Shown here one piece after another: positions 9,528-31,456 of a DNA stretch of 56,372 bases; within the stretch, counting starts at the first letter, position 1; every line of letters begins with the position of its first letter. The notes beneath the pieces were generated by a model. That model was not told where the DNA came from and did not search any database. It saw only the letters and a list, made by a program, of their open reading frames with translations. Origin of the DNA: Polyangiales bacterium (lineage in GTDB: Bacteria; Myxococcota_A; Polyangia; Polyangiales; Ga0077539); the NCBI GenBank assembly GCA_039809605.1, contig JBDHVF010000001.1, positions 1 through 56,372 of the forward strand, in the 5' to 3' direction. Position numbers and translations under genes: made by a program.

Positions 9528-11723
9528 TCAGCGGCGGCCGCGGGGCGGGCCGCGGCGGTCGTCGCGGTCGCGGCGGGGCGGGGCCTCGTTGTGCGAGCGG
9601 TCCATGCGCTCCTTGGCGCGCGTTCCCTCCTCGCCCTCGGGCAGCGGGAGCAGCGCGCGGCGCGAGAGGCGCACCTTGCCGGTGCCCTCCTCGACGGAGA
9701 TGACCTTCACGTCGACCTCGTCGCCCTCCTTGAGCACGTCGGTGACCTTCTCGACGCGGTCGTGGGCGAGCTCGCTCACGTGCACGAGGCCCTCGGTGCC
9801 GGGGAAGATCTCGACGAAGGCGCCGAAGTCGACCACGCGCTTGACCGTGCCCTTGTAGGTCGCGCCGATCTCGGCCTCGGCGGTGAGCCCGCGCACGATG
9901 TCGATCGCGCGCTGCACGGCCACGGGGTCGGAGCTGGCGATGTTGACCGTGCCGTCGTCCTGGATGTCGATGGCGACGCCCGTCTGGTCGACGATGCCCT
10001 TGATGGTCTTGCCGCCGGGGCCGATCACCACGCGGATCTGGTCGGGCTTGACCTTGATGCTCGTGATGCGCGGGGCGTACTTCGAGAGCTCGGTGCGCGG
10101 CGCGGGCAGCGTCGCGAGCATGCGCTCGAGGATGTGCAGCCGCGCGTCGCGGGCCTGGCGCAGCGCCTTGTCGAGGATGTCGCGCGAGAGGCCCTCGATC
10201 TTGATGTCCATCTGGATCGCGGTCACGCCCTTCTTGGTGCCGCAGACCTTGAAGTCCATGTCGCCGAGGTGGTCCTCGTCGCCGAGGATGTCCGTGAGCA
10301 CCGCGACCTTGTCGCCCTCCTTGATGAGGCCCATGGCGACGCCCGCGACGGGGGCGCGGATGGGCACGCCGGCGTCCATGAGGGCGAGGGTGCCGCCGCA
10401 CACGGTGGCCATCGAGCTCGAGCCGTTCGACTCGGTGATCTCGCTCACGATGCGGATCGTGTACGGGAACTGCTCGTTGGTGGGGATCATGCGCATGAGG
10501 GCGCGCTCGGCGAGGTTGCCGTGCCCGACCTCGCGCCGGCCCGGCGAGCGCATGGGCTTCACCTCGCCCACGGAGTAGGGCGGGAAGTTGTAGTGCAAGA
10601 GGAAGCGCTTCCACCGCTCGCCGGTGAGGGCGTCGATCTTCTGCTCGTCCTGCGAGGTGCCGAGGGTGGCGGTGACGATGCCCTGCGTCTCGCCGCGGGT
10701 GAAGAGCGACGAGCCGTGCACGCGCGGCAGCCACGCGACCTCGCAGGTGATGGGGCGCACGGTGACCGTGTCGCGGCCGTCGATGCGCACGCGATCGTCG
10801 ACGATCATGTTGCGCATCGTGCTCGCCTGCAGGTCGTGGAAGGCCTCCTTGATGAACTTCTCCTGCTCGGGGAACTCCGAGAGGAGCGTCTCGACGGCGA
10901 GCTTCGAGAGGGCCTTGAACCTCGCGTAGCGCTCCTGCTTGACGCGGGTGCGGCACGCCTCGGCGAGGCCCACGCCCACGACCTCGCGCACGCGCTCGAC
11001 GAGGTGCTCCGACGGGCGCTTGGCCACGAACGTGCGCTTGGTGCGGCCGATGGCCTCGCGCAGGCGCTCCTGCAGGTCGAGGAGGGGCTGCACGCTCTGG
11101 TGGGCGAACATCAGCGCCTCGATCATCTCCTCCTCGGAGATCTCCTCGGCGCCGCCCTCGACCATCACGATGGCGTCGCGGCTGGCGGCCACCACGATGT
11201 CGAGGTCGCTCTTCTCGCTCTGCTCGAAGGTCGGGAAGGCGATGAACTTGCCGTCCACGCGGCCCACGCGCACGCCCGCGATGGGGCCGCTCCAGGGGAT
11301 GTCGGAGATGTGCAGCGCGGCGCTCGCGCCCGTGAGCGAGAGCACGTCGCTGGGGTTGATCTTGTCGGCCGAGAGCACCGTCGCGATCACCTGCGTGTCG
11401 CAGCGGTAGCCGTCGGGAAAGAGCGGGCGGCACGGCCGGTCGATGAGGCGCGAGACGAGCACCTCCTCGTCGCGCGGACGGCCCTCGCGCTTGAAGAAGC
11501 CGCCGGGGATCTTGCCCGCGGCGAAGCCCTTCTCGATGTAGTCGACGGTCAGCGGGAAGAAGTCGATCCCGGGGCGCTCGTCGGTGTTCGAGCACGCGGT
11601 GACGAGCACCATGGTCTCGCCCGCCGAGATGAGGATCGAGCCGTGCGCCTGCTTGGCGATGCGGCCCGTCTCGAGGGTGATGGTGACCGAACCGACCTCT
11701 ACGCTCTCACGGATGATGGACAT
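9528..11723 (-). CDS. pnp: Polyribonucleotide nucleotidyltransferase (PNPase)
   Basis: 731 aa from ATG 11723, with AGGAG 6 nt upstream. The product begins [11 protein letters not shown]. Two RNase PH-like halves are followed by KH and S1 regions ([15 protein letters not shown]) in PNPase order, directly downstream of rpsO. Confidence 0.97.
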
Positions 11724-11892
11724 ACGAACTCCTGCGCGTTGCGCGGTGAATGGGGGATGCGGGGGCGCGCGCTCGGCAGGGCGTTGTGTCGTTCGGTGTC
11801 CTCGGTTCCTGCGCACGCGCGGGGCGTCGTGCGCACGAAGCGAAGACCGAGCGACGGGACGCTCGACCGGACCACGCGCGGTGTAGAAGCTC

Positions 11893-11930
11893 GAACGCCC
11901 TGCCCCTCGGCGATGAGGAACAGGGCGTTC
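11893..11930 (-). terminator. rpsO-distal hairpin (terminator/attenuator-like)
   Basis: GAACGCCCTG (11893-11902) pairs with CAGGGCGTTC (11921-11930), with an inner CCTC/GAGG extension. On the minus strand it starts 8 nt after the rpsO stop. It is followed by GAGCUUCU rather than a clean U-run. Confidence 0.5.
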
Positions 11931-11937
11931 GGGGTGA

Positions 11938-12207
11938 TCACTTGCGGAGGTTCAGCTCGCCGATGACCTTGCGGTAGCGGGCGACGTCCTTGCTCTTGAG
12001 GTACTCGAGGAGCCGACGGCGCTGCCCGACGAGCTTCAGGAGCCCGCGGCGCGAGTGGTGATCCTTCTTGTGGGTCTCGAAGTGGCCCGTGAGCTGCGAG
12101 ATGCGCGCGCTCAGCAGGGCGATCTGCACCTCGGGCGAGCCCGTGTCGGCCTCGCTGGTGCGGAACTTCTCGATGATCTCGGCCTTCTTGACGGAATGCA
12201 GCGACAT
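11938..12207 (-). CDS. rpsO: 30S ribosomal protein S15
   Basis: 89 aa, reading [70 protein letters not shown]. This is the canonical S15 sequence and the canonical rpsO-pnp arrangement. Confidence 0.97.
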
Positions 12208-12411
12208 GGATCTCTGGTCCTCTTCGAAAATCGGCGGCGGAGTATGTTCGATCCGCGGCAGGTGTCAATCGCGTTCCAGGTGTGGTAGTGGGCGTCCACC
12301 CGCAGTCGGGAAGCGGCTTCTACAGGAACGCCGCGCCCCGGTCCATACCCCCACCCGCAGGGGGAACGAACCGCCGCCCACGACGGTTCCCGTTCCACAC
12401 GAGCGCCGAGC

Positions 12412-14182
12412 ATGTTCGAAGGACTCCAACGATACTCGCAGACCCTCTTCCTGGTCATCCTGCTGGCCACGGTCGTCGCCTTCGGCCTGAGCTGGGGCCC
12501 GGGCGCCCGCGGATGCTCCGAGGGCAAGCTCGCGGTGACCCACGTCGCCAAGGTCTACGGCCGCACCATCGGCGAGACCGAGTACATGTCCACGTACTCG
12601 GTGCTCCGACGCATCGGCCAGCGCGACGAGGAGAACCCCGTCATCGGCGGCGCGCTCCGTCAGGGCGCCCTCGACGGCCTCATCGAGCGAGAGCTCCTCG
12701 CGCACGAGGCCGAGCGCCTGGGCTTCGTCGCGACCGACGACGACGTGAACGCCGAGTTCCGCAAGTGCCGCTTCTACCTCTCGGTGGGCGTCGGCGCAGA
12801 GACGGTGCTCGGCGTGCCCTCGGGCCCCATCCCCCCGATGATCATCTCGCCGCGCGCGTGCAGCGAGAACAACACCACCGAGTTCTCGTACACGGCCTTC
12901 GAGCGCCTCGCGCGGCGCATGTTCGGGCGCACCGTGCCCGACCTGCGCGAGTCGACGCGCCGCGAGATCCTCGCCCACCGCATGCGCGAGGCCGTGGCCT
13001 CGTCGGTGAGCATCTCCGACGAGGAGCTCTGGCGAGACTACCAACGCAGCCACGACCAGATGGCCGTGAAGTACCTGCGCTTCCCCCTGACGTTCTACCG
13101 CGACCTCGTGCGCGACGACGACCAGAACGCCGTCAACGAGTGGGCCCAGGCCCACGCCGAGGACGTGAACCGCATGTACGAGCGCCGCAGGGACACCCTC
13201 CGCGGGCTCCAGCGCGAGCTGCGCGTGCGGCACATCCTCCTGGCCTTCCCCGACGGCGCCACCGACGCGCAGAAGGCCGAGGCGCGGGCGAAGGCCGCGG
13301 CCGTGCGCGCGCGGCTCGTCGCGGGCGAAGACTTCGTGCGCCTCGCGCGGCTCTACTCGGGCGACCCCGGGAGCTGGCGCACCGGCGGCGACATGGGCTG
13401 GCAGTCGCACGACGCGCAGCAGCGCCTCGTCGAGCCCTTCCGCAACGCGATGAACGCCCTCGCGCTCAACGCCATCTCCGAGCCCGTCGAGACCGAGTTC
13501 GGCGTGCACATCATCCAGGTCACGGGCATCCGCGAGGGCGACGTGCCCGAGGCCGACGCCAAGCGCGACATCGCCCGCACCCTCTACCGCGAGGCCCGCG
13601 CCGCCGAGCTCGCCGCCGAGGCCGCCCGCGCCACCCTGGCTCGCATCCGCGGCGGGGCCGACCTCACGGTCGTCGGGCGCGAGCTCCACGACGCCGCGCT
13701 GCGGGAGTTCTACCGTGGCGAGGTCCCCGCGCCCGTGACCCTGCCGGGCAACGTGGTGCTGGCCCCCGTCGAGCGCACCGACCTCGACGCGCCCGAGCTC
13801 AAGGAGAGCGAGCAGTTCACCCGCAACGGCATGGTGCTCTCGGACGTCGACCGCCCCGACGTGCTCACCCAGGCGGCGTTTCAGCTCACCGACGCGCACC
13901 CCCTGAGCGCCGAGCCCGTGAAGGTCGGCGACGACTGGTTCATCCTGCGTTTCAAGGATGGCAGCCGCACCACGGCCACCCGCGAGGTTCGCCCGCCAGC
14001 GCCAGGAGCAGCTCTCGCAGAGCTCGATGCTCCCCGCCCGCCAGCGCCAGGCCCTCGTGCTCTACATCACCCAGCTCCGGCAGGACGCCGAGCACGCGGG
14101 CCAGGTGCGCCTCGGCAACTCCGACCGCATCCACGCGCCGCGCAACGCCGAGGGCGAGCCGCAGGAAGACGAGCAGAACTGA
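12412..14182 (+). CDS. PpiD/SurA-like membrane-anchored parvulin-type peptidyl-prolyl isomerase (frame disrupted near 13987)
   Basis: It has an N-terminal TM segment (TLFLVILLATVVAFGL) and a parvulin domain (RHILLAF...GGDMGW...EFGVHIIQV). After ...GSRTTATRE the listed frame turns into P/A/R-rich nonsense. The +1 frame (track ORF 13958-14182) continues sensibly as FARQRQEQLSQSSMLPARQRQALVLYITQLRQDAE. Confidence 0.8.
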
Positions 14183-14389
14183 CGGTTTTTCCCGAGGAAT
14201 AGCCCTTTCGGCCCGCCGTCAAGCCCGAACTCCCGCCCCGCCCCCCTCCCGCCTCCCCCGAAACGCCCTCCCGGGCCTCCAAGTCCTCGAAAGAACCAGC
14301 GAAAACCTTGGAGCTCCGGTCAGAGAACGACCGGGGATCGCATGGACCCTGTTGCGGTCCGGGGGGGTGGGGGATAGGTCAATGGGGCG

Positions 14390-15781
14390 ATGCACACGGC
14401 GTCCTTTACCCGCCTCCCCAACGGCTTGCGCCTGGTGACGGTGCAGCGGCCCCATCTGCACCAGGTGGTGATCGCGGCCAGCATCCACGTCGGCTCCCGC
14501 CACGAGACCCCCGGCACCAACGGTCTTACGCACTTCCTCGAGCACATGCTCTTCCGCGGCACGAGGCGCCTGCCCACGGCCGCGGCCTTCAACCACCGCA
14601 TCGAGTCCCTGGGCGGCACCCTCACGGCCGCCACCCACGGAGACTTCACCCTCTTCGAACTGACCGTGCCCCCCGACGCGATGGCCGAGGGCTGCGCGGA
14701 GCTCGGCGAGGTCTTCACCTCGCCCGTCTTCTCCGACCGCGAGGTCGAGAAGGGCATCGTGCGCGAGGAGATCCTCGAGGACCTCGACGAGGACGGCCGC
14801 GACGTGAACGCCGACAACGTGCTCCGCGCCGAGGTCTTTCGCGGCCACCCCCTGTCGTACCCCATCACCGGCTCGGTGAAGAACGTCGACCGCTTCAGCG
14901 ACCGCCACCTGCGCGAGCACATGGCCGCCCACTACGTCGCCCGCAACATGAGCGTGGCCGTCGTGGGACCGACCCACCACCGGGCCATGATCCGCGCCGC
15001 GACCCGGGCCTTCGGCGCGCTCCCAGCGGGGGCCCCGCGGCTCTCGTCGCCCTTCCGCACGCGCCAGTCGCGGGCGCGCATCCGGGCCGTGCCGTACTCG
15101 AGCGCGCAGACCTCGGTGCGCGTGGCCTTCCCCACGACGGGCCAGCGGGCCGCGAGCGCGCGCGCCCTCGAGCTCCTGCTGCGCGTGCTCGACGACGGCA
15201 TGTCGACCCGGCTGCACCGGCGCATCTGCGACGAGAAGGGCCTCGCGTACGGGGTCAACGGCAACCTCGAGCTCTTCGACGACGCGGGCGTCTTCGACGT
15301 GGCCGCCACCGTGGCCCACGCGTCGCTGCCCGACCTCGTGGGCGAGGTGCTCGCGATCCTCGGCGACCTCGCCATCGAGGGCCCCACGCGCGCCGAGGTC
15401 GAGAAGGCCCACCGGCGCTACGCGTTCGACCTCGACGCGATGGAAGACGACGCCCACGCCCTCGCGGACTACTACGGCCCGCCGGAGCTCTTCGACATGC
15501 GCCAGTCGCCCGCCGAGCGGCGCCGCGAGGTGATGGGCGTCACCGCGCAGGACATCCGCCGCGCCGCCCGCGCCATGCTCGACCCCTCGCGCGCCAACCT
15601 CGTGCTCGTGGGCGACTCCGACGCCGAGACGCGCCGCGAGATGGCCTCGCTCCTGCGGCGCTTTCGCGCGAGGCTCAAGGCCGGCGCGCGGGTGCGCGTG
15701 CCCGTGTCGGCCCCGACGCGCGCCCCCGTCACGCCCCGCCGCCGCGGGGGCGTTCTTGACCTGCCCGGCGTGAGTCCATAG
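14390..15781 (+). CDS. M16 (pitrilysin/insulinase) family zinc peptidase
   Basis: 463 aa with the inverted zinc motif HxxEH (GLTHFLEHMLFRGT) near the N-terminus and the typical two-domain length. Confidence 0.9.
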   Translation: MHTASFTRLPNGLRLVTVQRPHLHQVVIAASIHVGSRHETPGTNGLTHFLEHMLFRGTRRLPTAAAFNHRIESLGGTLTAATHGDFTLFELTVPPDAMAEGCAELGEVFTSPVFSDREVEKGIVREEILEDLDEDGRDVNADNVLRAEVFRGHPLSYPITGSVKNVDRFSDRHLREHMAAHYVARNMSVAVVGPTHHRAMIRAATRAFGALPAGAPRLSSPFRTRQSRARIRAVPYSSAQTSVRVAFPTTGQRAASARALELLLRVLDDGMSTRLHRRICDEKGLAYGVNGNLELFDDAGVFDVAATVAHASLPDLVGEVLAILGDLAIEGPTRAEVEKAHRRYAFDLDAMEDDAHALADYYGPPELFDMRQSPAERRREVMGVTAQDIRRAARAMLDPSRANLVLVGDSDAETRREMASLLRRFRARLKAGARVRVPVSAPTRAPVTPRRRGGVLDLPGVSP

Positions 15782-23176: not shown

Positions 23177-24034
23177 ATGACCCGCAGCACACCCGCCACC
23201 GTGGCCTCCGTGGCGATCCTCGCGACGCTCCCGCTCCTGGCGCAGCCGCGGCGCCGACGTCCGCCCGCGGTGCCTCCGCCCGTCGACCGGGTGGTCGTGC
23301 CCGCGGGGCCGTTCACCATGGGCAGTGACACCGGCGGCGAGCCCGACGAGCGGCCCTCGCACACGCGCACGCTCCCGGCGTTTCGCATCGACCGCCACGA
23401 GGTCACGCGCGAGGACTACTTTCGCTGCGTGCGCGCGGGCCGCTGCCAGGACGCGTGGGCGCGTCCCACGTGGACCGACCCCCATGGGCCGGTGACGGGC
23501 GTGTCGTGGTTCCAGGCGCGGACGTACTGCGCGTGGGCGAGCGGGAGGTTGCCCACCGAGGCCGAGTGGGAGAAGGCCGCGCGAGGCACCGACGGGAGGC
23601 GGTTTCCGTGGGGCAACGATCCTCCGACGCGGGAGCGAGCGGTGTACGGGCTGCGCATGAACATCGGGCAGCCCGAGCCCGTGGGGTCGCACCCGTCGGG
23701 GGCGTCTCCGTACGGCGCGCTCGACATGGCGGGCAACGTCTGGGAGTGGACCGAGAGCGTCTACGACCCCTACGCGTACCGCTACCCCGAGACGGTGCCC
23801 ACGTGCGCGACGGCCGACGCCGCCTACCGCGACCTTCGGCGACTCAACCTCTGGGCCTTCGCGGGCGCGATGGGCCTGCCGCCCGTCGGCGAGTGCCACC
23901 GCACGCTCCGCGGCGGCGCGTGGAACTACTGGCCCGACGGACTGCGAAGCTCCAACCGCGTGCACCACAAGCCCGAGGGGCGCTACCCGGTGAGCGGCTT
24001 CCGGTGCGCCGACGATTCCACGGGCGGGTCGTGA
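23177..24034 (+). CDS. Formylglycine-generating enzyme (SUMF1/FGE-sulfatase) family protein
   Basis: 285 aa from ATG 23177. Motifs include RPSHTRTLPAFRIDRHEVT, VSWFQARTYCAWASGRLPTEAEWEKAARG, GNVWEWTES and LRGGAW. Confidence 0.88.
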   Translation: MTRSTPATVASVAILATLPLLAQPRRRRPPAVPPPVDRVVVPAGPFTMGSDTGGEPDERPSHTRTLPAFRIDRHEVTREDYFRCVRAGRCQDAWARPTWTDPHGPVTGVSWFQARTYCAWASGRLPTEAEWEKAARGTDGRRFPWGNDPPTRERAVYGLRMNIGQPEPVGSHPSGASPYGALDMAGNVWEWTESVYDPYAYRYPETVPTCATADAAYRDLRRLNLWAFAGAMGLPPVGECHRTLRGGAWNYWPDGLRSSNRVHHKPEGRYPVSGFRCADDSTGGS

Positions 24035-24199
24035 GCCGATCAGGCGCGGGAGGGGGACGATGCGTCGACGGGGGTGAAGAGGTGCAGCGACGTGACCTGA
24101 GGGACGCGGCGTAGGAGGGGGGAGGGGTACTGCGCCGGGGCGTGGGGGGTACTGCGCCGGGTCGTCGGGGATGGAGCGCCGAGGGGGACGGGATCTGGG

Positions 24200-25133
24200 C
24201 ACCGGGACGTCGTCCGCTTCCGCCGAACGTCGACCGCGTTGCGATCGCTCCGGGCGCCGCGCGCGTCGTTCAAGTTCTCCGGCGCGATGCCGTTGAGAGT
24301 GAGTGAGCCTTCGACACGTGCCGTGGGGTGGAAGGGGCGTCTCGCGCGTGAGACGACGGCCGCTCCGCGCGGCACCTCCCCTACGCGCCCGCTCGCGGGC
24401 GAAAGGAGTTCCCCTGATGCGAAATCACGCTACGACGGCAGTAACCCAGGACCCGCCGCGCGCGGTGGCGCGGGGCGGGCAGGCGCCCACCAACGACGCC
24501 GCGAACGGCGTGTCCGACGACCCCGAGGTTCGGCGCCAGGTGCAGGCGCTGGCCCTCATCGCGGCGCTGCGCGCCGTGTGGCCGACGCTCGTGCAGCTCA
24601 CCACCGACCAGCGCGAGCGGTCGACCGGGCGGCTCGTCGCCTCGTACGAGACCGGGCTCCGGGCGCTTTTCACGGCGGCCTCGGCGGCGGCGTTCGCCCC
24701 CACGTTCGCGCTGCTCAGGGTCGACGACGAGGCGGGCGCGGCGTCGCCCTTCGACCCCGCCCGCGCCCTCGCGCACCTCGACCGCGCGCTGTCGATGCGC
24801 GAGGTCGCCGCGGAGCTCCGCGCGCTCGCCGACGTGATGGACGACGACGCGCTGCACCACGGCGCGCTCGCGGTCGACGCGGGCCGCGCCGCGCTCAAGA
24901 TCGCGCGCCCGCTCGCCGAGCACAACCCCGAGTTCCGCGCGCTGGTCGGGCACGCGCTCGACGCCTTCACCGCGATGACCGCGCCCGCGCGTCGCGCGAA
25001 GCCCGCCGCCACGCCGCCCGCCCCGAACGGCCACGGCAACCCGCAGCCGTAGCGCCGCCGCCCGTGGCCGCCGCACCGGACGCGCCCGGTGCGACGGCCG
25101 CTTCGCTCGCCCTCATCAGACCCGTCGTCGCCC
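24200..25133. repeat. Left copy of a ~0.93-kb direct repeat
   Basis: It aligns by eye with 29540-30480, with scattered substitutions and small indels in the leader. It contains the complete 211-aa gene, its SD and ~215 bp of leader. Confidence 0.9.
24417..25052 (+). CDS. Hypothetical Ala-rich helical protein (copy 1 of 2)
   Basis: 211 aa; ATG 24417 is preceded by AAAGGAG with 8-nt spacing. It differs from the 29764-30399 product at 5 residues. No motif recognised. Confidence 0.7.
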   Translation: MRNHATTAVTQDPPRAVARGGQAPTNDAANGVSDDPEVRRQVQALALIAALRAVWPTLVQLTTDQRERSTGRLVASYETGLRALFTAASAAAFAPTFALLRVDDEAGAASPFDPARALAHLDRALSMREVAAELRALADVMDDDALHHGALAVDAGRAALKIARPLAEHNPEFRALVGHALDAFTAMTAPARRAKPAATPPAPNGHGNPQP

Positions 25134-25164
25134 ACGCGAGAGCGGCGCTTCGACGGGTACCGGG

Positions 25165-25224
25165 TACGTCGCAGAAGTGCCCGTCGCCCGGCCGTGACTG
25201 GAGCGTCGCCGGGTAGCCCTGCGC
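25165..25224 (-). pseudogene. Decayed relic of an esterase 3' end
   Basis: The minus-strand translation AQGYPATLQSRPGDGHFCDV parallels AGFAVTMQLRPGDGHFCDG at the C-terminus of the intact esterase (30485-31456). There is no upstream ORF continuation. Confidence 0.45.
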
Positions 25225-25312
25225 ATGAAATAGTCCTTGACTGCGACTCAGAGGTCGCAGACCCTGCCCTGAATCGTGAGGAATTCCTTCTCACGATCCA
25301 CGGAGGGTAACG

Positions 25313-26959
25313 ATGTTGCAAGCAAGCAGGCGGGCAGCCAGCAACTGGCTGATGCGGTGGCTCCATGTCGCCGCGGTGGTGATGACCGTGGTGCTCTCGC
25401 TGGGCGCGTTGGGGGCTGATTGCAGCCCGTCGCCGCCCGCGTGTGGGGTCGACGGAGGCATGGCGGCCGGATGTCCGCAGGGGCAGCACCGCGTGTGCTT
25501 GAACCGGTGCGTGACGTACGTCGGCTCGGGGAGCTCGTGCTCGCTCGACCACTGCACGGGCGACGTGTGCGCGGCGAATCTCGCCTGCGTGCCTGCGAGT
25601 TCGGGCTCGCTCACGGGCACGTGCCAGACCCCCGTGAGCGACCTCGGTTGCGACCCGACCTCAACCACGACACGTTGCTTCGAGGGCACCTTCTGTCAGA
25701 CCCGCGGGACGCAGGCGCAGGTCGACGCGCACACCGCTTGCGCCTTGACGATCTCGGCGCAGAACGGCAAAGCGGGGCTGTGCGTCACACCCGCCCGCGA
25801 GGGGGAGCATTGCGATGGCGAGTGGAACACGGTGATGGCCGGCTCCAGTTCGTTGATCTGCAGCCCTTGCGAGCCAGGCATGGCGTGCGTGGGCGGCATC
25901 TGCCAGCGCAAGTGTACGGCGGACGAGGACTGCCCCTGCACCTCCCCCGATAGCGGTCTCGGTTGCCGCACGGCGCTCCCCGGGTCGGGCACGCGGGTGT
26001 GCGACCTCTGCCGCGGCGACGGCATGAACTGCCAGGGCATCGGACGGCCCAACTTCACCTGCTGCAATGCCTTGTCGAGCTGCAACGCGCAGCACGGAAC
26101 GTTCGAGTGCTGTCGAGCCTCGGGGGCGAGTTGCGACATCAACGTGGCGGGCCAGTGCTGCGAGGGGAAGACTTGCCAGGGCGGCACCTGCCAGACGTGC
26201 GTGGCCCTGGGCTCGAACGCGACCGACGCGCGCGTGTGCTGCGGCACGGACCGCCGCGTGATCGGCGGCGTATGCGCGGCCTGCCGCGTGGGCGGTCAGA
26301 CGGCGGGCAGCGCTTCGGAGTGCTGCTCGGGGCTCACGTTCGACTCGGCGCTGGGGATCTGCAAGACGGGCTGCACGCAGGACCTCAACTCGTGGTGTTC
26401 GGTCTCGGGGGCGATGGCGGGCTCGCAATGTGCGATCGGCAGGGTCACGGACTGTGATCCCATGACGGGCGCACCTGTATGCACGGCCGTGAGCGGACCG
26501 ACGAGCGAGGTGTGCGACGGCGTCGACAACGACTGCGATGGGATGACGGACGAGGACTTCGGGGTTGGCAACACGTGCCTCACCCCGGTGGCGTATGAGG
26601 ACGTCCGCGGGAGTGCTGTGACGCCGTGCCTGAACCAGACGGCCAACGTCCACGGACACCTTCGGTGCGATCGCGCGCACACCGGCACGCAATGCACCGC
26701 CATCCAGGACTACGACTACTGCACGATCTGCGGGCCGGGCGGGAGCGGACCTACGGACATGTACGGCCGGACCACCATGAACTGTGGTGCCTGCCCGGGA
26801 AACCCCGGCGATCCGTGCAGCAGCCCGAGCAACCTCTGCACGCCCAACGGGCACTGCAACTCGTTCGGAGGCATGTACAACTGTTACAACTCCACATGCC
26901 TCACCCCGTGGGCGTGCTGGTCCTCGGCGGATATCGGCACCGAGAGCTGCCCGCAGTGA
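25313..26959 (+). CDS. Secreted cysteine-rich protein (67 Cys in 548 aa) with one CDGxDNDCDGxxDE motif
   Basis: GGAGGG lies 6 nt before ATG 25313. An N-terminal hydrophobic signal (WLHVAAVVMTVVLSLGALGA) is present. Cysteines were counted by hand. EVCDGVDNDCDGMTDED matches the myxobacterial putative metal-binding Cys repeat. Confidence 0.8.
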   Translation: MLQASRRAASNWLMRWLHVAAVVMTVVLSLGALGADCSPSPPACGVDGGMAAGCPQGQHRVCLNRCVTYVGSGSSCSLDHCTGDVCAANLACVPASSGSLTGTCQTPVSDLGCDPTSTTTRCFEGTFCQTRGTQAQVDAHTACALTISAQNGKAGLCVTPAREGEHCDGEWNTVMAGSSSLICSPCEPGMACVGGICQRKCTADEDCPCTSPDSGLGCRTALPGSGTRVCDLCRGDGMNCQGIGRPNFTCCNALSSCNAQHGTFECCRASGASCDINVAGQCCEGKTCQGGTCQTCVALGSNATDARVCCGTDRRVIGGVCAACRVGGQTAGSASECCSGLTFDSALGICKTGCTQDLNSWCSVSGAMAGSQCAIGRVTDCDPMTGAPVCTAVSGPTSEVCDGVDNDCDGMTDEDFGVGNTCLTPVAYEDVRGSAVTPCLNQTANVHGHLRCDRAHTGTQCTAIQDYDYCTICGPGGSGPTDMYGRTTMNCGACPGNPGDPCSSPSNLCTPNGHCNSFGGMYNCYNSTCLTPWACWSSADIGTESCPQ

Positions 26960-28155
26960 AGCACCTCGCGTCGATCGGCATCGTGTTCCTCACGGCGTGG
27001 CTCCTCGGCTGCGCCGGCACCGTGAGCGCCTCTGCGGGCGACGCGGCGCCGGTCGACGTGCGGTCCGACGCCACGGACGGTCCCAGCGACGCGTCGGACG
27101 CGGGCCTCACGGTGGTGCGCGGCACCGTTGCGATGGGCTCGTCCCACGCCTGCGCGCTCGACGAGCGGGGGGCCGTGTGGTGCTGGGGCTCGAATGACTA
27201 CGGGCAGCTCGGCGACGGCACCACCAACTCGCACCCCACGCCCGTGCGGGCGGTTGGTATCGAGGGGGCGGTGCAGGTGGCGGTGGGACATGTGTCGAGC
27301 TGCGCGGTGCTCCGCGATGGGACCGTACGTTGCTGGGGCATGACGCTGACGCGCTCCATCGAACCGGGCCCGCGGATCCCTCGTGATGCGCTCACGCTGA
27401 TGCCCCAGGCGGTCGCGAACCTCGACCGAGTGCAGTCCGTGGCCGTCCAATCGGGCACAGGTGTGGAGGGGGGCCTCGCCTGTGCGGTGCGCGACGACGG
27501 CAGCGTCTGGTGCTGGGGCAACACGGCGCGTGTTCCGGGGTACCTGGAGGTTCGAACCGCGGCACCTACCGGCCCCTCGACGCTGACAGGGATCACCGCG
27601 CTCGGCTTCGAGTCCTTCTACAAGTGCGCCCGGGCGCGGGTTGGCACCGTCACCTGCTGGGATCTACGCCCCTGGGATCCGACGTTCCCGAGGGCGCCGG
27701 TGATGCTTGACGGCGTGACCGACGCCCTCGACCTCGCAGGCGGGCAGGAACACCTCTGCGTGCTGTCGCGCACGGGCACTGTGCGCTGCATGGGCGACAA
27801 CAGGTTCGGCGAACTCGGCGACGGGAGCGATCAGCCCAGCCTCCGTGCCTTCGTCACGGTGCGCGGCCTCTCCGACGCGGTTGCCATCTCGTCGGGCGGC
27901 AGCGTCACGACCGTTGCGCTGCGCTCCGACGGCACCGTGGTCCAGTGGGGCAGCGGCGACTCGCGCCTGCGCGCGTTGGCGGCGGTCGCTGGCCTTCACG
28001 ACATTATCGACGTGTCGATGAGCTTCGCGTCGGCCTGCGCTCGCCGCACCGACGGGGCCGTACTCTGCTGGGGCCTCAATGGCGACGGTCAGCTCGGCGA
28101 CGGCACACTCCGCGGCCATGCGGACGCACGGCCGGTCGTAGGCCTCGGCCGCTGA
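26956..28155 (+). CDS. RCC1-repeat (beta-propeller) lipoprotein, paralogue 1
   Basis: GTG 26956 overlaps the upstream TGA (GTGA). The lipobox is VFLTAWLLGC. Repeated ...CALxxxGxVxCWGxNxxGQLGDG... units are present; 399 aa. Confidence 0.85.
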   Translation: MKHLASIGIVFLTAWLLGCAGTVSASAGDAAPVDVRSDATDGPSDASDAGLTVVRGTVAMGSSHACALDERGAVWCWGSNDYGQLGDGTTNSHPTPVRAVGIEGAVQVAVGHVSSCAVLRDGTVRCWGMTLTRSIEPGPRIPRDALTLMPQAVANLDRVQSVAVQSGTGVEGGLACAVRDDGSVWCWGNTARVPGYLEVRTAAPTGPSTLTGITALGFESFYKCARARVGTVTCWDLRPWDPTFPRAPVMLDGVTDALDLAGGQEHLCVLSRTGTVRCMGDNRFGELGDGSDQPSLRAFVTVRGLSDAVAISSGGSVTTVALRSDGTVVQWGSGDSRLRALAAVAGLHDIIDVSMSFASACARRTDGAVLCWGLNGDGQLGDGTLRGHADARPVVGLGR

Positions 28156-28219
28156 CCCCTCCCCGCGGGCGTGGCGTATCGTGCGGTGCGCCACGCCCGC
28201 AACTCCCCCGGAGGACCCG

Positions 28220-29464
28220 ATGAACCACTCACGCAGCCTTCTCGCGCTGGCGACGTTCGCCCTCGCCGCGCATTGCGCCAGCACCGTGCAGCACGCGTCT
28301 ACCGACGCCGCGCCCAGCGGTGCGTCGGCGGACGTGACCTCGCTCGGCGATCACCCTGCCGACGTCGTGTTGGGCCGCGACGCTGGACCATCCGGCGACG
28401 TCTTGTCGGCCCGCATCACGGTGGAGCGCGGCACCGTCGCGGTCGGCGTTCGGCACGCGTGCGCCGTCGACCGTGGCGGCGCGGTGTGGTGCTGGGGGAG
28501 CAACACGTACGGACAGCTCGGCGACGGCACGACGGACGCCCGGCCGTCCCCCGTCCGGGTGGCCGACATCCGCAACGCGCGCACTCTCGCGGTCGGCGAG
28601 GTGTCGAGCTGCGCGGTGCTCTCGGACGGCACCGTGCGCTGCTGGGGGCTCGACCCAACGCGTTCGGTCGATCCCCGAGCGATCCCACGTGACGCCCTCG
28701 TGCTGAACCCGTGGACGATCGCCAATCTCGACTCCGTGCGGCACGTCTCCCTGGGCTCGGTGCCGAGCGGCAGTCTCTACTGTGCCGTTCGCGTCGACGG
28801 TGGCGTGTGGTGCTGGGGGAATGCGGATCTGGCACCCGGCTACATGTTCGGCCCGTCCGTCGCCGCCCCTACAGGCCCCTCGGCGCTGACCGACGTCGAG
28901 TCGATCACGATCTCGACTCCCTACCGCTGCGCCACCATGCGAAGCGGTTCAGTTACGTGCTGGGGGCAGAGGTTCTGGGACCCGACGTTCCCAACCTCGC
29001 CGACCGTGATCGAGGGCGCCGCGGATGCGCTCGAGGTCGTGATCGGCAGTCAGCACCTGTGCGTGCTCTCACGCGCAGGGACGGTCCGCTGTCTCGGTGA
29101 CAACCGGTACGGCGGCCTCGGCAACGGCCGTGCGCAGCCCCCTGACCTCCGCACGTTCGTCACCGCATCGGGGGCGACCGGCGTGGTGGCCCTCTCCGCG
29201 GGCTCGGGCAACTTCACAGTCGCTCTCCGCGGCGATGGCGCCGTGCTCCAGTGGGGCACCCTTGCAGGCATGACGCTCCGCACTCCGACATCCGTCGCGG
29301 GCCTCTCGAACATCGTCGACGTGTCGGCCGGTCTCACGTCAGCCTGCGCCCGGCGTGCTGACGGCGCGGTGTTCTGCTGGGGCAACAACACCGACGGCCA
29401 GCTCGGCGACGGTACCCTCCGCGGCCACGCGGATGCCCGGCGCGTCGTGGGCCTCGGCCCCTGA
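28220..29464 (+). CDS. RCC1-repeat (beta-propeller) lipoprotein, paralogue 2
   Basis: ATG 28220 follows GGAGGA. The signal is MNHSRSLLALATFALAAHC; 414 aa. It is collinear with paralogue 1 and shares the C-terminal DGQLGDGTLRGHADARxVVGLG. Confidence 0.85.
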   Translation: MNHSRSLLALATFALAAHCASTVQHASTDAAPSGASADVTSLGDHPADVVLGRDAGPSGDVLSARITVERGTVAVGVRHACAVDRGGAVWCWGSNTYGQLGDGTTDARPSPVRVADIRNARTLAVGEVSSCAVLSDGTVRCWGLDPTRSVDPRAIPRDALVLNPWTIANLDSVRHVSLGSVPSGSLYCAVRVDGGVWCWGNADLAPGYMFGPSVAAPTGPSALTDVESITISTPYRCATMRSGSVTCWGQRFWDPTFPTSPTVIEGAADALEVVIGSQHLCVLSRAGTVRCLGDNRYGGLGNGRAQPPDLRTFVTASGATGVVALSAGSGNFTVALRGDGAVLQWGTLAGMTLRTPTSVAGLSNIVDVSAGLTSACARRADGAVFCWGNNTDGQLGDGTLRGHADARRVVGLGP

Positions 29465-29539
29465 CCCATCCCCGCGGGCGCGGCGTCACGGCGTCTCGTC
29501 ACGCCCGGCGCCGCTCGCGCGGCGCGGTCTTCCCCACGC

Positions 29540-30480
29540 ACCGAGACGTCTCGATCGCGCTTCCGCCGAACGTCGACCGCGTCGCGATCGCTCCGGGCGC
29601 CGCGTCGCCCTTCGTTCAAGTTCTCCGGCGCGATGCCGTTGAGAGTGAGTGAGCCTTCGATACGTGCCGTGGGGTGGAAGGGTCGTCTCGCGCGTGAGAC
29701 GACGGCCGCTTCGCGCGGCGCCTCCCCCTACGCGCCCGCTCGCGGGCGAAAGGAGTTCCCCTGATGCGAAATCACGCTACGACGGCTGCAACCCAGGACC
29801 CGCCGCGCGCGGTGGCGCGGGGCGGGCACGCGCCCACCAACGACGTCGCGAACGGCGTGTCCGACGACCCCGAGGTTCGGCGCCAGATGCAGGCGCTGGC
29901 CCTCATCGCGGCGCTGCGCGCCGTGTGGCCGACGCTCGTGCAGCTCACCACCGACCAGCGCGAGCGGTCGACCGGGCGGCTCGTCGCCTCGTACGAGACC
30001 GGGCTCCGGGCGCTTTTCACGGCGGCCTCGGCGGCGGCGTTCGCCCCCACGTTCGCGCTGCTCAGGGTCGACGACGAGGCGGGCGCGGCGTCGCCCTTCG
30101 ACCCCGCCCGCGCCCTCGCGCACCTCGACCGCGCGCTGTCGATGCGCGAGGTCGCCGCGGAGCTCCGCGCGCTCGCCGACGTGATGGACGACGACGCGCT
30201 GCACCACGGCGCGCTCGCGGTCGACGCGGGCCGCGCCGCGCTCAAGATCGCGCGCCCGCTCGCCGAGCACAACCCCGAGTTCCGCGCGCTGGTCGGGCAC
30301 GCGCTCGACGCCTTCACCGCGATGACCGCGCCCGCGCGTCGCGCGAAGCCCGCCGCCACGCCGCCCGCCCCGAGCGGCCACGGTAACCCGCAGCCGTAGC
30401 CCCGCCGCCCGTGGCCGTCGCGCCGGACGCGCCCGGTGCGACGGCCGCTTCGCTCGCCCTCGTCAGACCCGTCGTCGCCC
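29540..30480. repeat. Right copy of the ~0.93-kb direct repeat
   Basis: See 24200-25133. The right copy runs directly into the stop-proximal end of the esterase gene. Confidence 0.9.
29764..30399 (+). CDS. Hypothetical Ala-rich helical protein (copy 2 of 2)
   Basis: 211-aa track ORF with the same SD and leader as copy 1. Confidence 0.7.
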   Translation: MRNHATTAATQDPPRAVARGGHAPTNDVANGVSDDPEVRRQMQALALIAALRAVWPTLVQLTTDQRERSTGRLVASYETGLRALFTAASAAAFAPTFALLRVDDEAGAASPFDPARALAHLDRALSMREVAAELRALADVMDDDALHHGALAVDAGRAALKIARPLAEHNPEFRALVGHALDAFTAMTAPARRAKPAATPPAPSGHGNPQP

Positions 30481-30484
30481 CGCG

Positions 30485-31456
30485 CTACATCGCCGCGCCG
30501 CGACGGTGCGTGAGCACGCGCCACGCGCGGTCGACGAAGTCTCCGTCGCAGAAGTGCCCGTCGCCCGGCCGGAGCTGCATCGTCACCGCGAAGCCCGCGT
30601 CGGTGAGCGCGCGCTCGAGCGCGCACGCGTACTGCACCGACACGTCGGGGTCGTCGGTGCCGTGCGAGATCACCACGGGGAAGCGCGGCCCCGAGAGGGG
30701 GACCTCCATCGGCAGCGCGGGCCCGCGGCAGTCGCACCAGCCGGGCATCGCGGGGTAGCGCGCGCAGTCGGCCACGCGGCCCGCGCGGAAGTGACACGCG
30801 CCCGTGGTCGCGCAGCGCACGAGGCCGCCGGAGTTGAACGCCGCGCCCGCGACGCGGTCGCCGAGGGTCATCGCGACCTCGAGCGCGAAGAACGCGCCGT
30901 TCGAGTGGCCCATCACGTACACGCGCGCGGGGTCGACGTGGTAGTCGCGCTCCGCGGCGGCGATGAGGGCGCGCACGAGCAGGAGGTCGCGGTTGCGGCT
31001 CGGGTCGCGGTCGGGGTGCGTCTCCCACCAGCGCTCGCCCGACTGCTCGGGGTGGTCCCAGTCGGAGGAGGGCATCACGCGCGCGTCGGGCGCGGCCACG
31101 ACCACGCCCTCGGCGTTGGCGATGGCGAGCGCGCCGCACTCGTCGATGATGCCCGCGCCGTCGCCCCGCGTGCCGTGGAAGATCACCAGCAGCGCGGGCC
31201 TAGAGGGCCTCGCGTCGGGGAGCACCAGCGCGACCTCGCGCTCCTCGCCCGCGACCGTGAGCGTCGCGCGCTGCCGCCCGGCGCCCCGAGGGAGCGCGCC
31301 CCCGAAGCGCACCGGGTCCCTCGCGCGCACCGCGACGGCGGCGCTGCGCGGGCGCGACGGCGCGGGGGTCGACGTGCACGCGATCGCCGCCGCGAGCGGC
31401 AGGAGCCAGCGGATCACCGAGGTCGTTCGGGTGCGAACCATCGCGTGCGCGCTCAT
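30485..31456 (-). CDS. Alpha/beta-hydrolase esterase (PHB-depolymerase/LpqC-like family), lipoprotein signal
   Basis: ATG 31456 overlaps the upstream stop (ATGA); 323 aa. The nucleophile elbow is VMGHSNGAFF. The signal is RWLLPLAAAIAC. Confidence 0.75.
   Translation of the reverse strand: MSAHAMVRTRTTSVIRWLLPLAAAIACTSTPAPSRPRSAAVAVRARDPVRFGGALPRGAGRQRATLTVAGEEREVALVLPDARPSRPALLVIFHGTRGDGAGIIDECGALAIANAEGVVVAAPDARVMPSSDWDHPEQSGERWWETHPDRDPSRNRDLLLVRALIAAAERDYHVDPARVYVMGHSNGAFFALEVAMTLGDRVAGAAFNSGGLVRCATTGACHFRAGRVADCARYPAMPGWCDCRGPALPMEVPLSGPRFPVVISHGTDDPDVSVQYACALERALTDAGFAVTMQLRPGDGHFCDGDFVDRAWRVLTHRRGAAM

Follow-up and report, generated by a model that had tools for sequence, protein, structure and literature searches.

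Two near-identical copies of an undescribed gene unit around a secreted-protein cassette in a variable chromosomal slot, with signs of probable gene conversion between the copies

Two near-identical direct repeats are present in a 56,372-bp window (the whole stretch of DNA analysed here, one complete metagenome-type NCBI contig of 72.6% G+C), whose nearest relatives are Polyangiales metagenome-assembled genomes. Each repeat holds a complete gene unit for a protein of 211 amino acids (aa), which we call p211, and between the two units lie three genes for secreted proteins, namely a Cys-rich protein and two RCC1-repeat lipoproteins. We propose that this arrangement stems from a chromosomal segmental duplication whose p211 copies were kept alike by gene conversion and selection, and that it is not a mobile element; we give this reading a probability of roughly 0.6. 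The repeat is a routine genome feature. It provides an annotated example of a duplicated gene pair that bears the marks of gene conversion, here in a variable slot of an uncultured Polyangiales-like bacterium.

Alignment with blastn pairs the left repeat (24199..25138, plus strand) with the right repeat (29538..30484, plus strand) in direct orientation. The two share 97.15% identity in 948 alignment columns and differ by 18 substitutions and 7 gap openings. MAFFT agrees on the borders and puts the repeats into clean register from 24215/29558. Hence, the two near-identical ~0.93-kb direct repeats reported by eye in a first-pass annotation of this DNA are real, and none of the three methods used (repeat finding, blastn and MAFFT) shows a third copy in the window. 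Each repeat comprises a whole gene unit, in which a leader of ~200 nt with a hairpin is followed by the 211-aa open reading frame (ORF), a 3' stem-loop and a short spacer that leads into the tail of an esterase gene. The two ORFs, p211L (24417..25052, plus strand) and p211R (29764..30399, plus strand), are both intact, and ORF comparison returns exactly the five residue differences listed before (V9A, Q22H, A27V, V41M and N204S). p211L is assigned to an undescribed helical family from its ORF, its homologues and an AlphaFold2 model, and has a G+C content at third codon positions (GC3) of 0.96; p211 is the sole ORF in the repeat with coding-type GC3.

The two edges of the repeat differ in kind. 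On the left, the edge is the start of the conserved leader, while on the right it lies beyond the end of the gene unit and homology continues into the esterase. The high-identity part of the right repeat stops at the stop codon of the intact esterase gene (30485-30487), and the gene itself (30485..31456, minus strand; a PHB-depolymerase-like lipoprotein by Pfam and NCBIfam) is convergent with p211R. Behind the left copy, positions 25132-25166 are unalignable with their counterpart (35 nt on the left against 65 nt on the right, so that the left is ~30 nt shorter), and then a decayed remnant of the esterase 3' end follows (25167..25223, minus strand), which matches positions 30544-30599 of the intact gene at 86% over 58 nt in blastn. 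Translated from the minus strand the remnant reads GYPATLQSRPGDGHFCD, compared to GFAVTMQLRPGDGHFCD in the intact esterase, with 12 of 17 aa matching (tblastn E = 8e-4). The stump is collinear with the parent junction, its order and orientation being kept after p211L. The decayed esterase end that had been proposed on first reading is therefore borne out, and so is the overall plan: the 211-aa gene plus the esterase 3' end form a unit of which two directly oriented copies enclose three genes for secreted proteins, and ORF analysis finds just these three, the Cys-rich gene, RCC1a and RCC1b, between the copies.

Divergence between the copies is mosaic. Positions 24215-24540 contain 12 substitutions and 2 indels, positions 25027-25131 contain 6 substitutions, and in between the difference map shows an identical core of 486 bp (24541..25026, plus strand, 0 differences to 29888-30373). 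The flanks of the core thus carry 18 differences in 431 bp, about 4%. An identical run of 486 bp has a permutation P of 2.5e-5 when all sites are counted and of 0.02 when only non-coding and third-codon sites are used. A central identity peak with eroding edges is a classic gene-conversion signature on an older duplication, and the core is probably a gene-conversion tract, with assembly collapse as the alternative. The esterase stump has diverged further than the p211 unit, with 8 differences in 53 positions; the leader has 7 in 202 (Fisher P = 0.004) and the unit as a whole 18 in 917 (P = 3e-5). If the stump is neutral and its parent under selection, the two are expected to be less diverged than two neutral leaders are from each other, and they are observed to be more diverged; therefore the p211 units are either homogenised or unusually tightly constrained over 917 nt. 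The copies probably do not go back to a recent event: the stump differs by 15% plus indels, the rest of the repeat by 2-3.5% and the core not at all. All five aa differences (positions 9, 22, 27, 41 and 204) lie outside the identical core, which covers nearly all of the confidently modelled and conserved p211 domain, and four of the five fall into terminal regions of low model confidence.

We envisage the following course of events. The duplicated segment would have measured ~1.03 kb and included the whole p211 transcription unit, the short spacer and approximately 115 bp from the 3' end of the esterase gene that converges on it. The right copy, which is located beside the intact esterase, would be the parent at that junction, and the left copy with its stump would be the daughter. 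Afterwards, the useless esterase stump would have decayed, whereas identity between the p211 units remained at 97-100%. Gene conversion is the most likely homogeniser, its last tract having possibly spanned at least 486 bp over the structured part of p211, and purifying selection on both intact p211 genes probably contributes. Two routes could have brought the daughter copy to its present place. Either 25224-30599 was duplicated in tandem and the first Cys/RCC1/RCC1 set was lost afterwards, or the 1-kb unit was duplicated in tandem and the cassette, which is lower in GC3, was inserted later. Tandem duplication is already evident in the same block, since RCC1a and RCC1b form such a pair, and we count this in favour of the duplication reading.

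Gene pairs of this kind have precedents. Prokaryotic paralogues have been described to evolve in concert over long times (survey in PMC6053082), and similar to concerted paralogues such as tufA/tufB and the rRNA operons, the two p211 copies are far closer to each other than to homologues elsewhere, show mosaic identity with an identical central tract and eroding edges, and are both intact. Unlike tufA/tufB and the rRNA operons, p211 is an uncharacterised, non-housekeeping gene, its copies are direct and merely 5.3 kb apart, and orthologues close enough to show concerted evolution are not at hand. A second parallel is offered by duplication-amplification units, which arise by RecA-dependent unequal crossing-over between direct repeats such as insertion sequence (IS) or rrn copies. 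As in these units, ~0.9-kb direct repeats flank a cargo, which is expected to be amplified in tandem or to be lost together with one of the copies. In contrast to IS- or rrn-bounded units, the repeats here are a host gene unit, and copy-number variation is predicted and not observed. Because the copies are direct repeats with a 486-bp identical core, RecA-dependent unequal exchange could delete the 5.35-kb unit, leaving the order FGE-p211-esterase, or amplify it. The direct repeats thus predict copy-number instability of the three secreted Cys-rich/RCC1 lipoprotein genes.

Several points speak against a duplication maintained by gene conversion. The collections searched hold no relative that is more than 80% identical, which puts the age of the duplication and concerted evolution beyond the reach of phylogeny. 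With a GC3 of 0.96 there is little room for synonymous change, so that the silent-site test (P = 0.02) has no more than moderate weight. If the contig comes from a short-read assembly, the identical core may represent merged variants, and the order across the core rests on the contig. Nor is it evident how a 1-kb copy could reach a site 4.4 kb upstream in a single step, and the alternatives need two events. Finally, the cassette differs from its surroundings in composition, with GC3 values of 0.874 for the Cys-rich gene, 0.870 for RCC1a and 0.858 for RCC1b (z = -3.2 to -3.9), below all 18 reference genes of the window (mean 0.954, sd 0.025), and this suggests a separate history. Both p211 copies have a backbone-typical GC3.

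The chromosomal context was compared with loci from other assemblies (labelled L001-L019), and the relatives available for synteny are fairly distant, their backbone proteins being 65-79% identical in aa sequence. The window is housekeeping chromosome, encoding among others PNPase, a SurA-like protein, an M16 peptidase, URO-D and thymidine phosphorylase. A common backbone is shared between the window and its relatives, consisting of penicillin amidase and FGE on one side and the esterase, Hpt and PrsW on the other; the range of 65-79% refers to the comparison with L012, L013, L015 and L016, and the esterase orthologues in the syntenic relatives are 66-73% identical. Between the FGE-sulfatase-domain gene (23177..24034, plus strand; Pfam 2.5e-50, with a 73% aa orthologue in L012), which forms the left edge, and the esterase gene there is a slot (24035..30484) in which the relatives hold different cargo. 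In L012 the order is PrsW, a 222-aa ORF, Hpt, esterase, slot, FGE and penicillin amidase, and the slot (10973-15103) contains a Ricin-B lectin, a 303-aa protein and 2-thiour_desulf, a 2-thiouracil-desulfurase-like protein. L013, from another sample, has a rearranged slot (10973-14956) in which the penicillin amidase is inverted and follows directly after the lectin. L015 and L016 share the order Hpt, HisPhos, esterase, and here a GH5 mannosidase and a gene of 290 aa come after the esterase (L015 7526-10502). A profile of the p211 family finds no p211 at the four syntenic loci L012, L013, L015 and L016. A single-copy layout of FGE gene, 211-aa gene and esterase, which the first-pass annotation had suggested looking for, was accordingly not found in these syntenic relatives of 65-79% aa identity. 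The block of p211, cassette and p211 is lineage-specific cargo in a variable slot, and the slot looks like a local rearrangement hotspot for secreted and carbohydrate-binding proteins.

An insertion of the Campbell type, in which a circular DNA carrying p211, the esterase stump and the Cys/RCC1/RCC1 genes recombined into a chromosome with the order FGE-p211-esterase, is in our view unlikely. The topology is exactly that left by a single crossover, with homology, cargo, homology and a truncated neighbour gene beside one copy as known from Campbell-type integrations; the slot is variable in relatives, and the cassette falls below all 18 reference genes in GC3 while p211 is backbone-typical. However, neither the block nor the window ORFs scanned contain a replication, integration or transfer gene, and no transposase was found among these ORFs either. 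Searches with tblastn and blastn against PLSDB and INPHARED gave no plasmid or phage match for cargo or repeat, and no plasmid or phage homologue supports such a donor. The donor must, moreover, already have had p211 adjacent to an esterase, an adjacency shown by no relative, and the recipient layout FGE-p211-esterase was not found in the relatives examined either, so that, unlike in known Campbell-type integrations, neither donor nor empty site is represented. A diverged donor would also have spread differences over the entire repeat, and the identical core would still require later gene conversion. Of the two origins originally put forward, insertion of a circular molecule and segmental duplication, the shared topology and a plausible RecA substrate are retained here as what the arrangement implies, whereas a circular or mobile donor is not, given that no integrase, transposase, replicon, plasmid or phage signal was seen.

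An assembly artefact or mis-threading is likewise improbable. The two copies could be strain variants of one locus, or a single-copy chromosome could coexist with a 5.35-kb circle or tandem array, the identical core then being merged variants. That both copies lie on one molecule is supported by the contig itself, a single metagenome-type contig; an identity of 97% is within the range of strain variation, and a single-copy chromosome together with a 5.35-kb circle or tandem array would yield the same assembly graph. All differences are, furthermore, located within ~330 bp of the left or ~110 bp of the right repeat edge, where they can be phased to unique flanks, and the core has none. Nevertheless, each copy has unique flanks on both sides, and a distinct decayed stump leads from the left copy into the Cys-rich gene; the unique flanks and the distinct left stump require two or more p211 loci that are physically different. 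A circle of 5.35 kb would be one without a replication gene, and private substitutions are found on both sides of the core in both copies.

Known mobile architectures resemble the block superficially. Like a composite transposon, it has cargo between two near-identical ~1-kb repeats, but unlike in composite transposons the repeats have no transposase-like domain and include a fragment of a neighbouring chromosomal gene; repeat finding reports no inverted repeats at the repeat ends, and no duplicated target is visible by eye in the flanks. Integrative elements and genomic islands differ as well, since there is no integrase in the ORFs scanned, the repeats are 0.93-kb gene units, and the sole tRNA of the window (Gln, 49314) is 19 kb away from the block. 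A broader conjecture holds that dispersed p211 units serve as homology arms, by means of which secreted-protein cassettes in the variable chromosomal slots of Polyangiales are captured, swapped, excised and amplified, no dedicated recombinase being needed. We consider it very doubtful; if it were true, the 5.35-kb unit would occur in the population in integrated, deleted, circular or amplified forms. Synteny tends to be poor in Polyangiales. That the p211 unit of leader, ORF and 3' hairpin is itself a portable module, which spreads and supplies the homology for capture or exchange of its neighbours, is the least probable explanation: close family members in unrelated neighbourhoods keep leader and 3' hairpin, the left repeat edge coincides with the conserved leader start, and L001 likewise has a Cys-rich plus RCC1 protein two genes upstream, but the right side of the duplication passes the hairpin into the esterase and is therefore not bounded by the module, no terminal inverted repeat or target-site duplication is seen by eye at the left-copy borders (no dedicated search was run), a recombinase domain is absent, none of the other contigs has a second copy, and conserved regulatory flanks are expected for any gene, with synteny poor among the loci examined.

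A more useful by-product of the segmental-duplication analysis is the orphan p211 family, which combines a confident predicted fold lacking a match with conserved, covarying 5' and 3' hairpins and is a target for functional work. No match to p211 was obtained in Pfam, NCBIfam, PADLOC or PHROGs. Among remote members, all 48 alignment members (E <= 1) included, these libraries gave no recurrent match, and no weak Pfam match repeats. A word-indexed search found nine clusters with likeness to p211, all of them unnamed or "hypothetical". An exhaustive profile search extended this to 205 representatives at E <= 1e-3 (counted at 50% clustering, with some long repetitive and probably spurious proteins among them), of which 52 remain at E <= 1e-10. 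The family is thus widespread. Most members have 180-220 aa and match over their full length, sharing the motifs WPxLxxLTxxER, DDxLHxG and PGLxALxLAR, and a Pfam domain is absent from all of them. The nearest homologue is 56-60% identical and non-syntenic.

The structure of p211 was predicted with AlphaFold2. With ten sequences the model was poor, at a predicted local distance difference test score (pLDDT) of 61.8, and with the 48-sequence alignment it was confident (pLDDT 86.9, predicted template modelling score 0.68). In this model a disordered N-terminus (1-35) is followed by helices 36-54 and 63-88, a small beta hairpin (101-111), a 56-residue helix (114-169), a helix at 171-194 and a disordered tail. 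Foldseek searches with the model gave nothing significant (best E = 5 in the PDB and 0.24 in BFVD), and a profile search of PDB sequences with the family was empty. The initial impression of a 211-aa protein without a known motif is in line with these library scans, structure prediction and Foldseek searches, all of which ended without a match; p211 is an undescribed protein family, with 205 representatives that include some probably spurious ones. p211 has no signal peptide. With low confidence, we suggest that it could be a cytoplasmic helical regulatory or adaptor protein, the expression of which would be controlled via a structured mRNA.

Structured elements are located on both sides of the ORF. 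The left leader (24215..24416, plus strand) contains the hairpin CGTCTC-GCGCGT-GAGACG (24338-24355, loop GCGCGT) and the Shine-Dalgarno motif AAAGGAG 8 nt before the ATG, both present as described earlier. In the right leader (29558-29763, plus strand) the hairpin is found at 29682-29703, and the leader hairpin is placed ~60 nt before the ATG. The leader is non-coding, because the copies differ in it by indels of 1 nt and 3 nt. It is homologous in L001, L004, L008 and L009, where the proteins are only ~55% identical, with the invariant blocks CTCAAG, CCGTT and CGCGCGT and with compensatory changes in the stem around the GCGCGT loop. A conserved 3' stem-loop with the loop ACGCGC follows the p211L stop (25067..25098, core 25072-25093, plus strand) and is likewise conserved in the right copy (30411-30448, plus strand). 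It is located 11-25 nt past the stop, has 15 pairs and a free energy of -28.9 kcal/mol, and 6 of the 15 pairs show compensatory changes among six sequences from five loci. The same element is also present after the homologues in L001, L004, L007, L008 and L009. Kissing of the 5' loop GCGCGT with the 3' loop ACGCGC was rejected as unsupported although the loops are reverse complements; this complementarity is not taken as significant because both loops centre on the self-complementary CGCG and only two positions are informative. An Rfam scan of 23900-30800 at a lenient threshold gave one sub-threshold match, ctRNA_pGA1 (24.3 bits at a cut-off of 45, E = 0.17), which is located at 25065-25143 on the minus strand, overlaps the 3' hairpin and was judged to be a chance match to a GC-rich stem-loop. 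Scans for sigma-70 promoters and for intrinsic terminators returned nothing.

Gene neighbours of p211 family members are not conserved among the loci examined, and scans for p211 loci in genomes and metagenomes gave only 1 and 3 loci, respectively, none of which is syntenic. The closest relative of p211 (56%), in L019, is followed by a convergent non-esterase gene that appears MazG-like by eye. A remote member with ~27% identity (L018 147-1430) is located directly downstream of an extracytoplasmic function (ECF) sigma gene with a Sigma70_r2 domain, and in L017 (6614-7630), which is syntenic with L018, a 99-aa ORF takes the position of this remote member. A partnership of p211 with ECF sigma factors was not adopted, as the arrangement is seen for this one remote member in L018 only. 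Two homologues are found in defence-like surroundings, one beside DUF6602 and SMODS (L007 1365-2993) and one beside an AAA_15/AAA_21 ATPase and a 195-aa protein (L001 5854-7724). A frameshift in the N-terminal disordered region was observed for the homologue of one Polyangiales metagenome-assembled lineage in several independent assemblies (L001 4644-5298, also L002 and L003), and the homologue at L008 ~10000-10660 has a second frameshift. Gene callers therefore start the frameshifted homologue, which may be either a pseudogene or a gene for a shorter protein, at an internal Met (164 aa).

Within the cassette, the Cys-rich secreted protein (25313..26959, plus strand) is an ORF of 548 aa with 67 Cys residues, a hydrophobic N-terminus and a weak MopE-type motif under the Pfam cut-off. 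RCC1a (26956..28155, plus strand; Pfam RCC1_2 at 2.4e-36, lipobox LLGC) and RCC1b (28220..29464, plus strand; identified by Pfam, repeat families and blastp) are RCC1-repeat lipoproteins that pass the Pfam gathering cut-off for RCC1_2 with 123 and 120 bits compared to 22. RCC1a starts with a GTG codon that overlaps the TGA with which the Cys-rich gene ends (GTGA, 26956-26959), and this overlap suggests that both genes are part of one operon with translational coupling. RCC1a and RCC1b are tandem paralogues of 55% aa identity with a 1309-bp period and 70-78% nucleotide identity in blocks, and represent an older tandem duplication inside the cassette.

Cys-rich/RCC1-type repeat proteins are abundant in this group. 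In L001 (2-3040, also in L002 and L003) a protein of at least 1012 aa has long Cys-rich repeats fused to an RCC1 domain, which is 36-40% identical to the RCC1 proteins of the window, and its gene is located two genes upstream of a p211 homologue. A link between p211 and Cys-rich/RCC1 proteins was not adopted, since it is seen in 2 of ~6 independent contexts and may be due to chance. The spacer before the Cys-rich gene (25224-25312) is relatively AT-rich and holds two palindromes, TGCGAC-N6-GTCGCA (25244-25261) and ATCGTGAG-N9-CTCACGAT (25273-25297), ahead of GGAGGG and the ATG; these palindromes (25244-25297) are possible operator or promoter elements of the cassette operon. The spacer between the FGE gene and p211L contains, immediately beyond the border of the large repeat, two exact copies of a 16-nt sequence, GGGGTACTGCGCCGGG, in direct orientation (24124-24139 and 24146-24161) with a 22-nt period, compared to a chance expectation of 0.1 matches.

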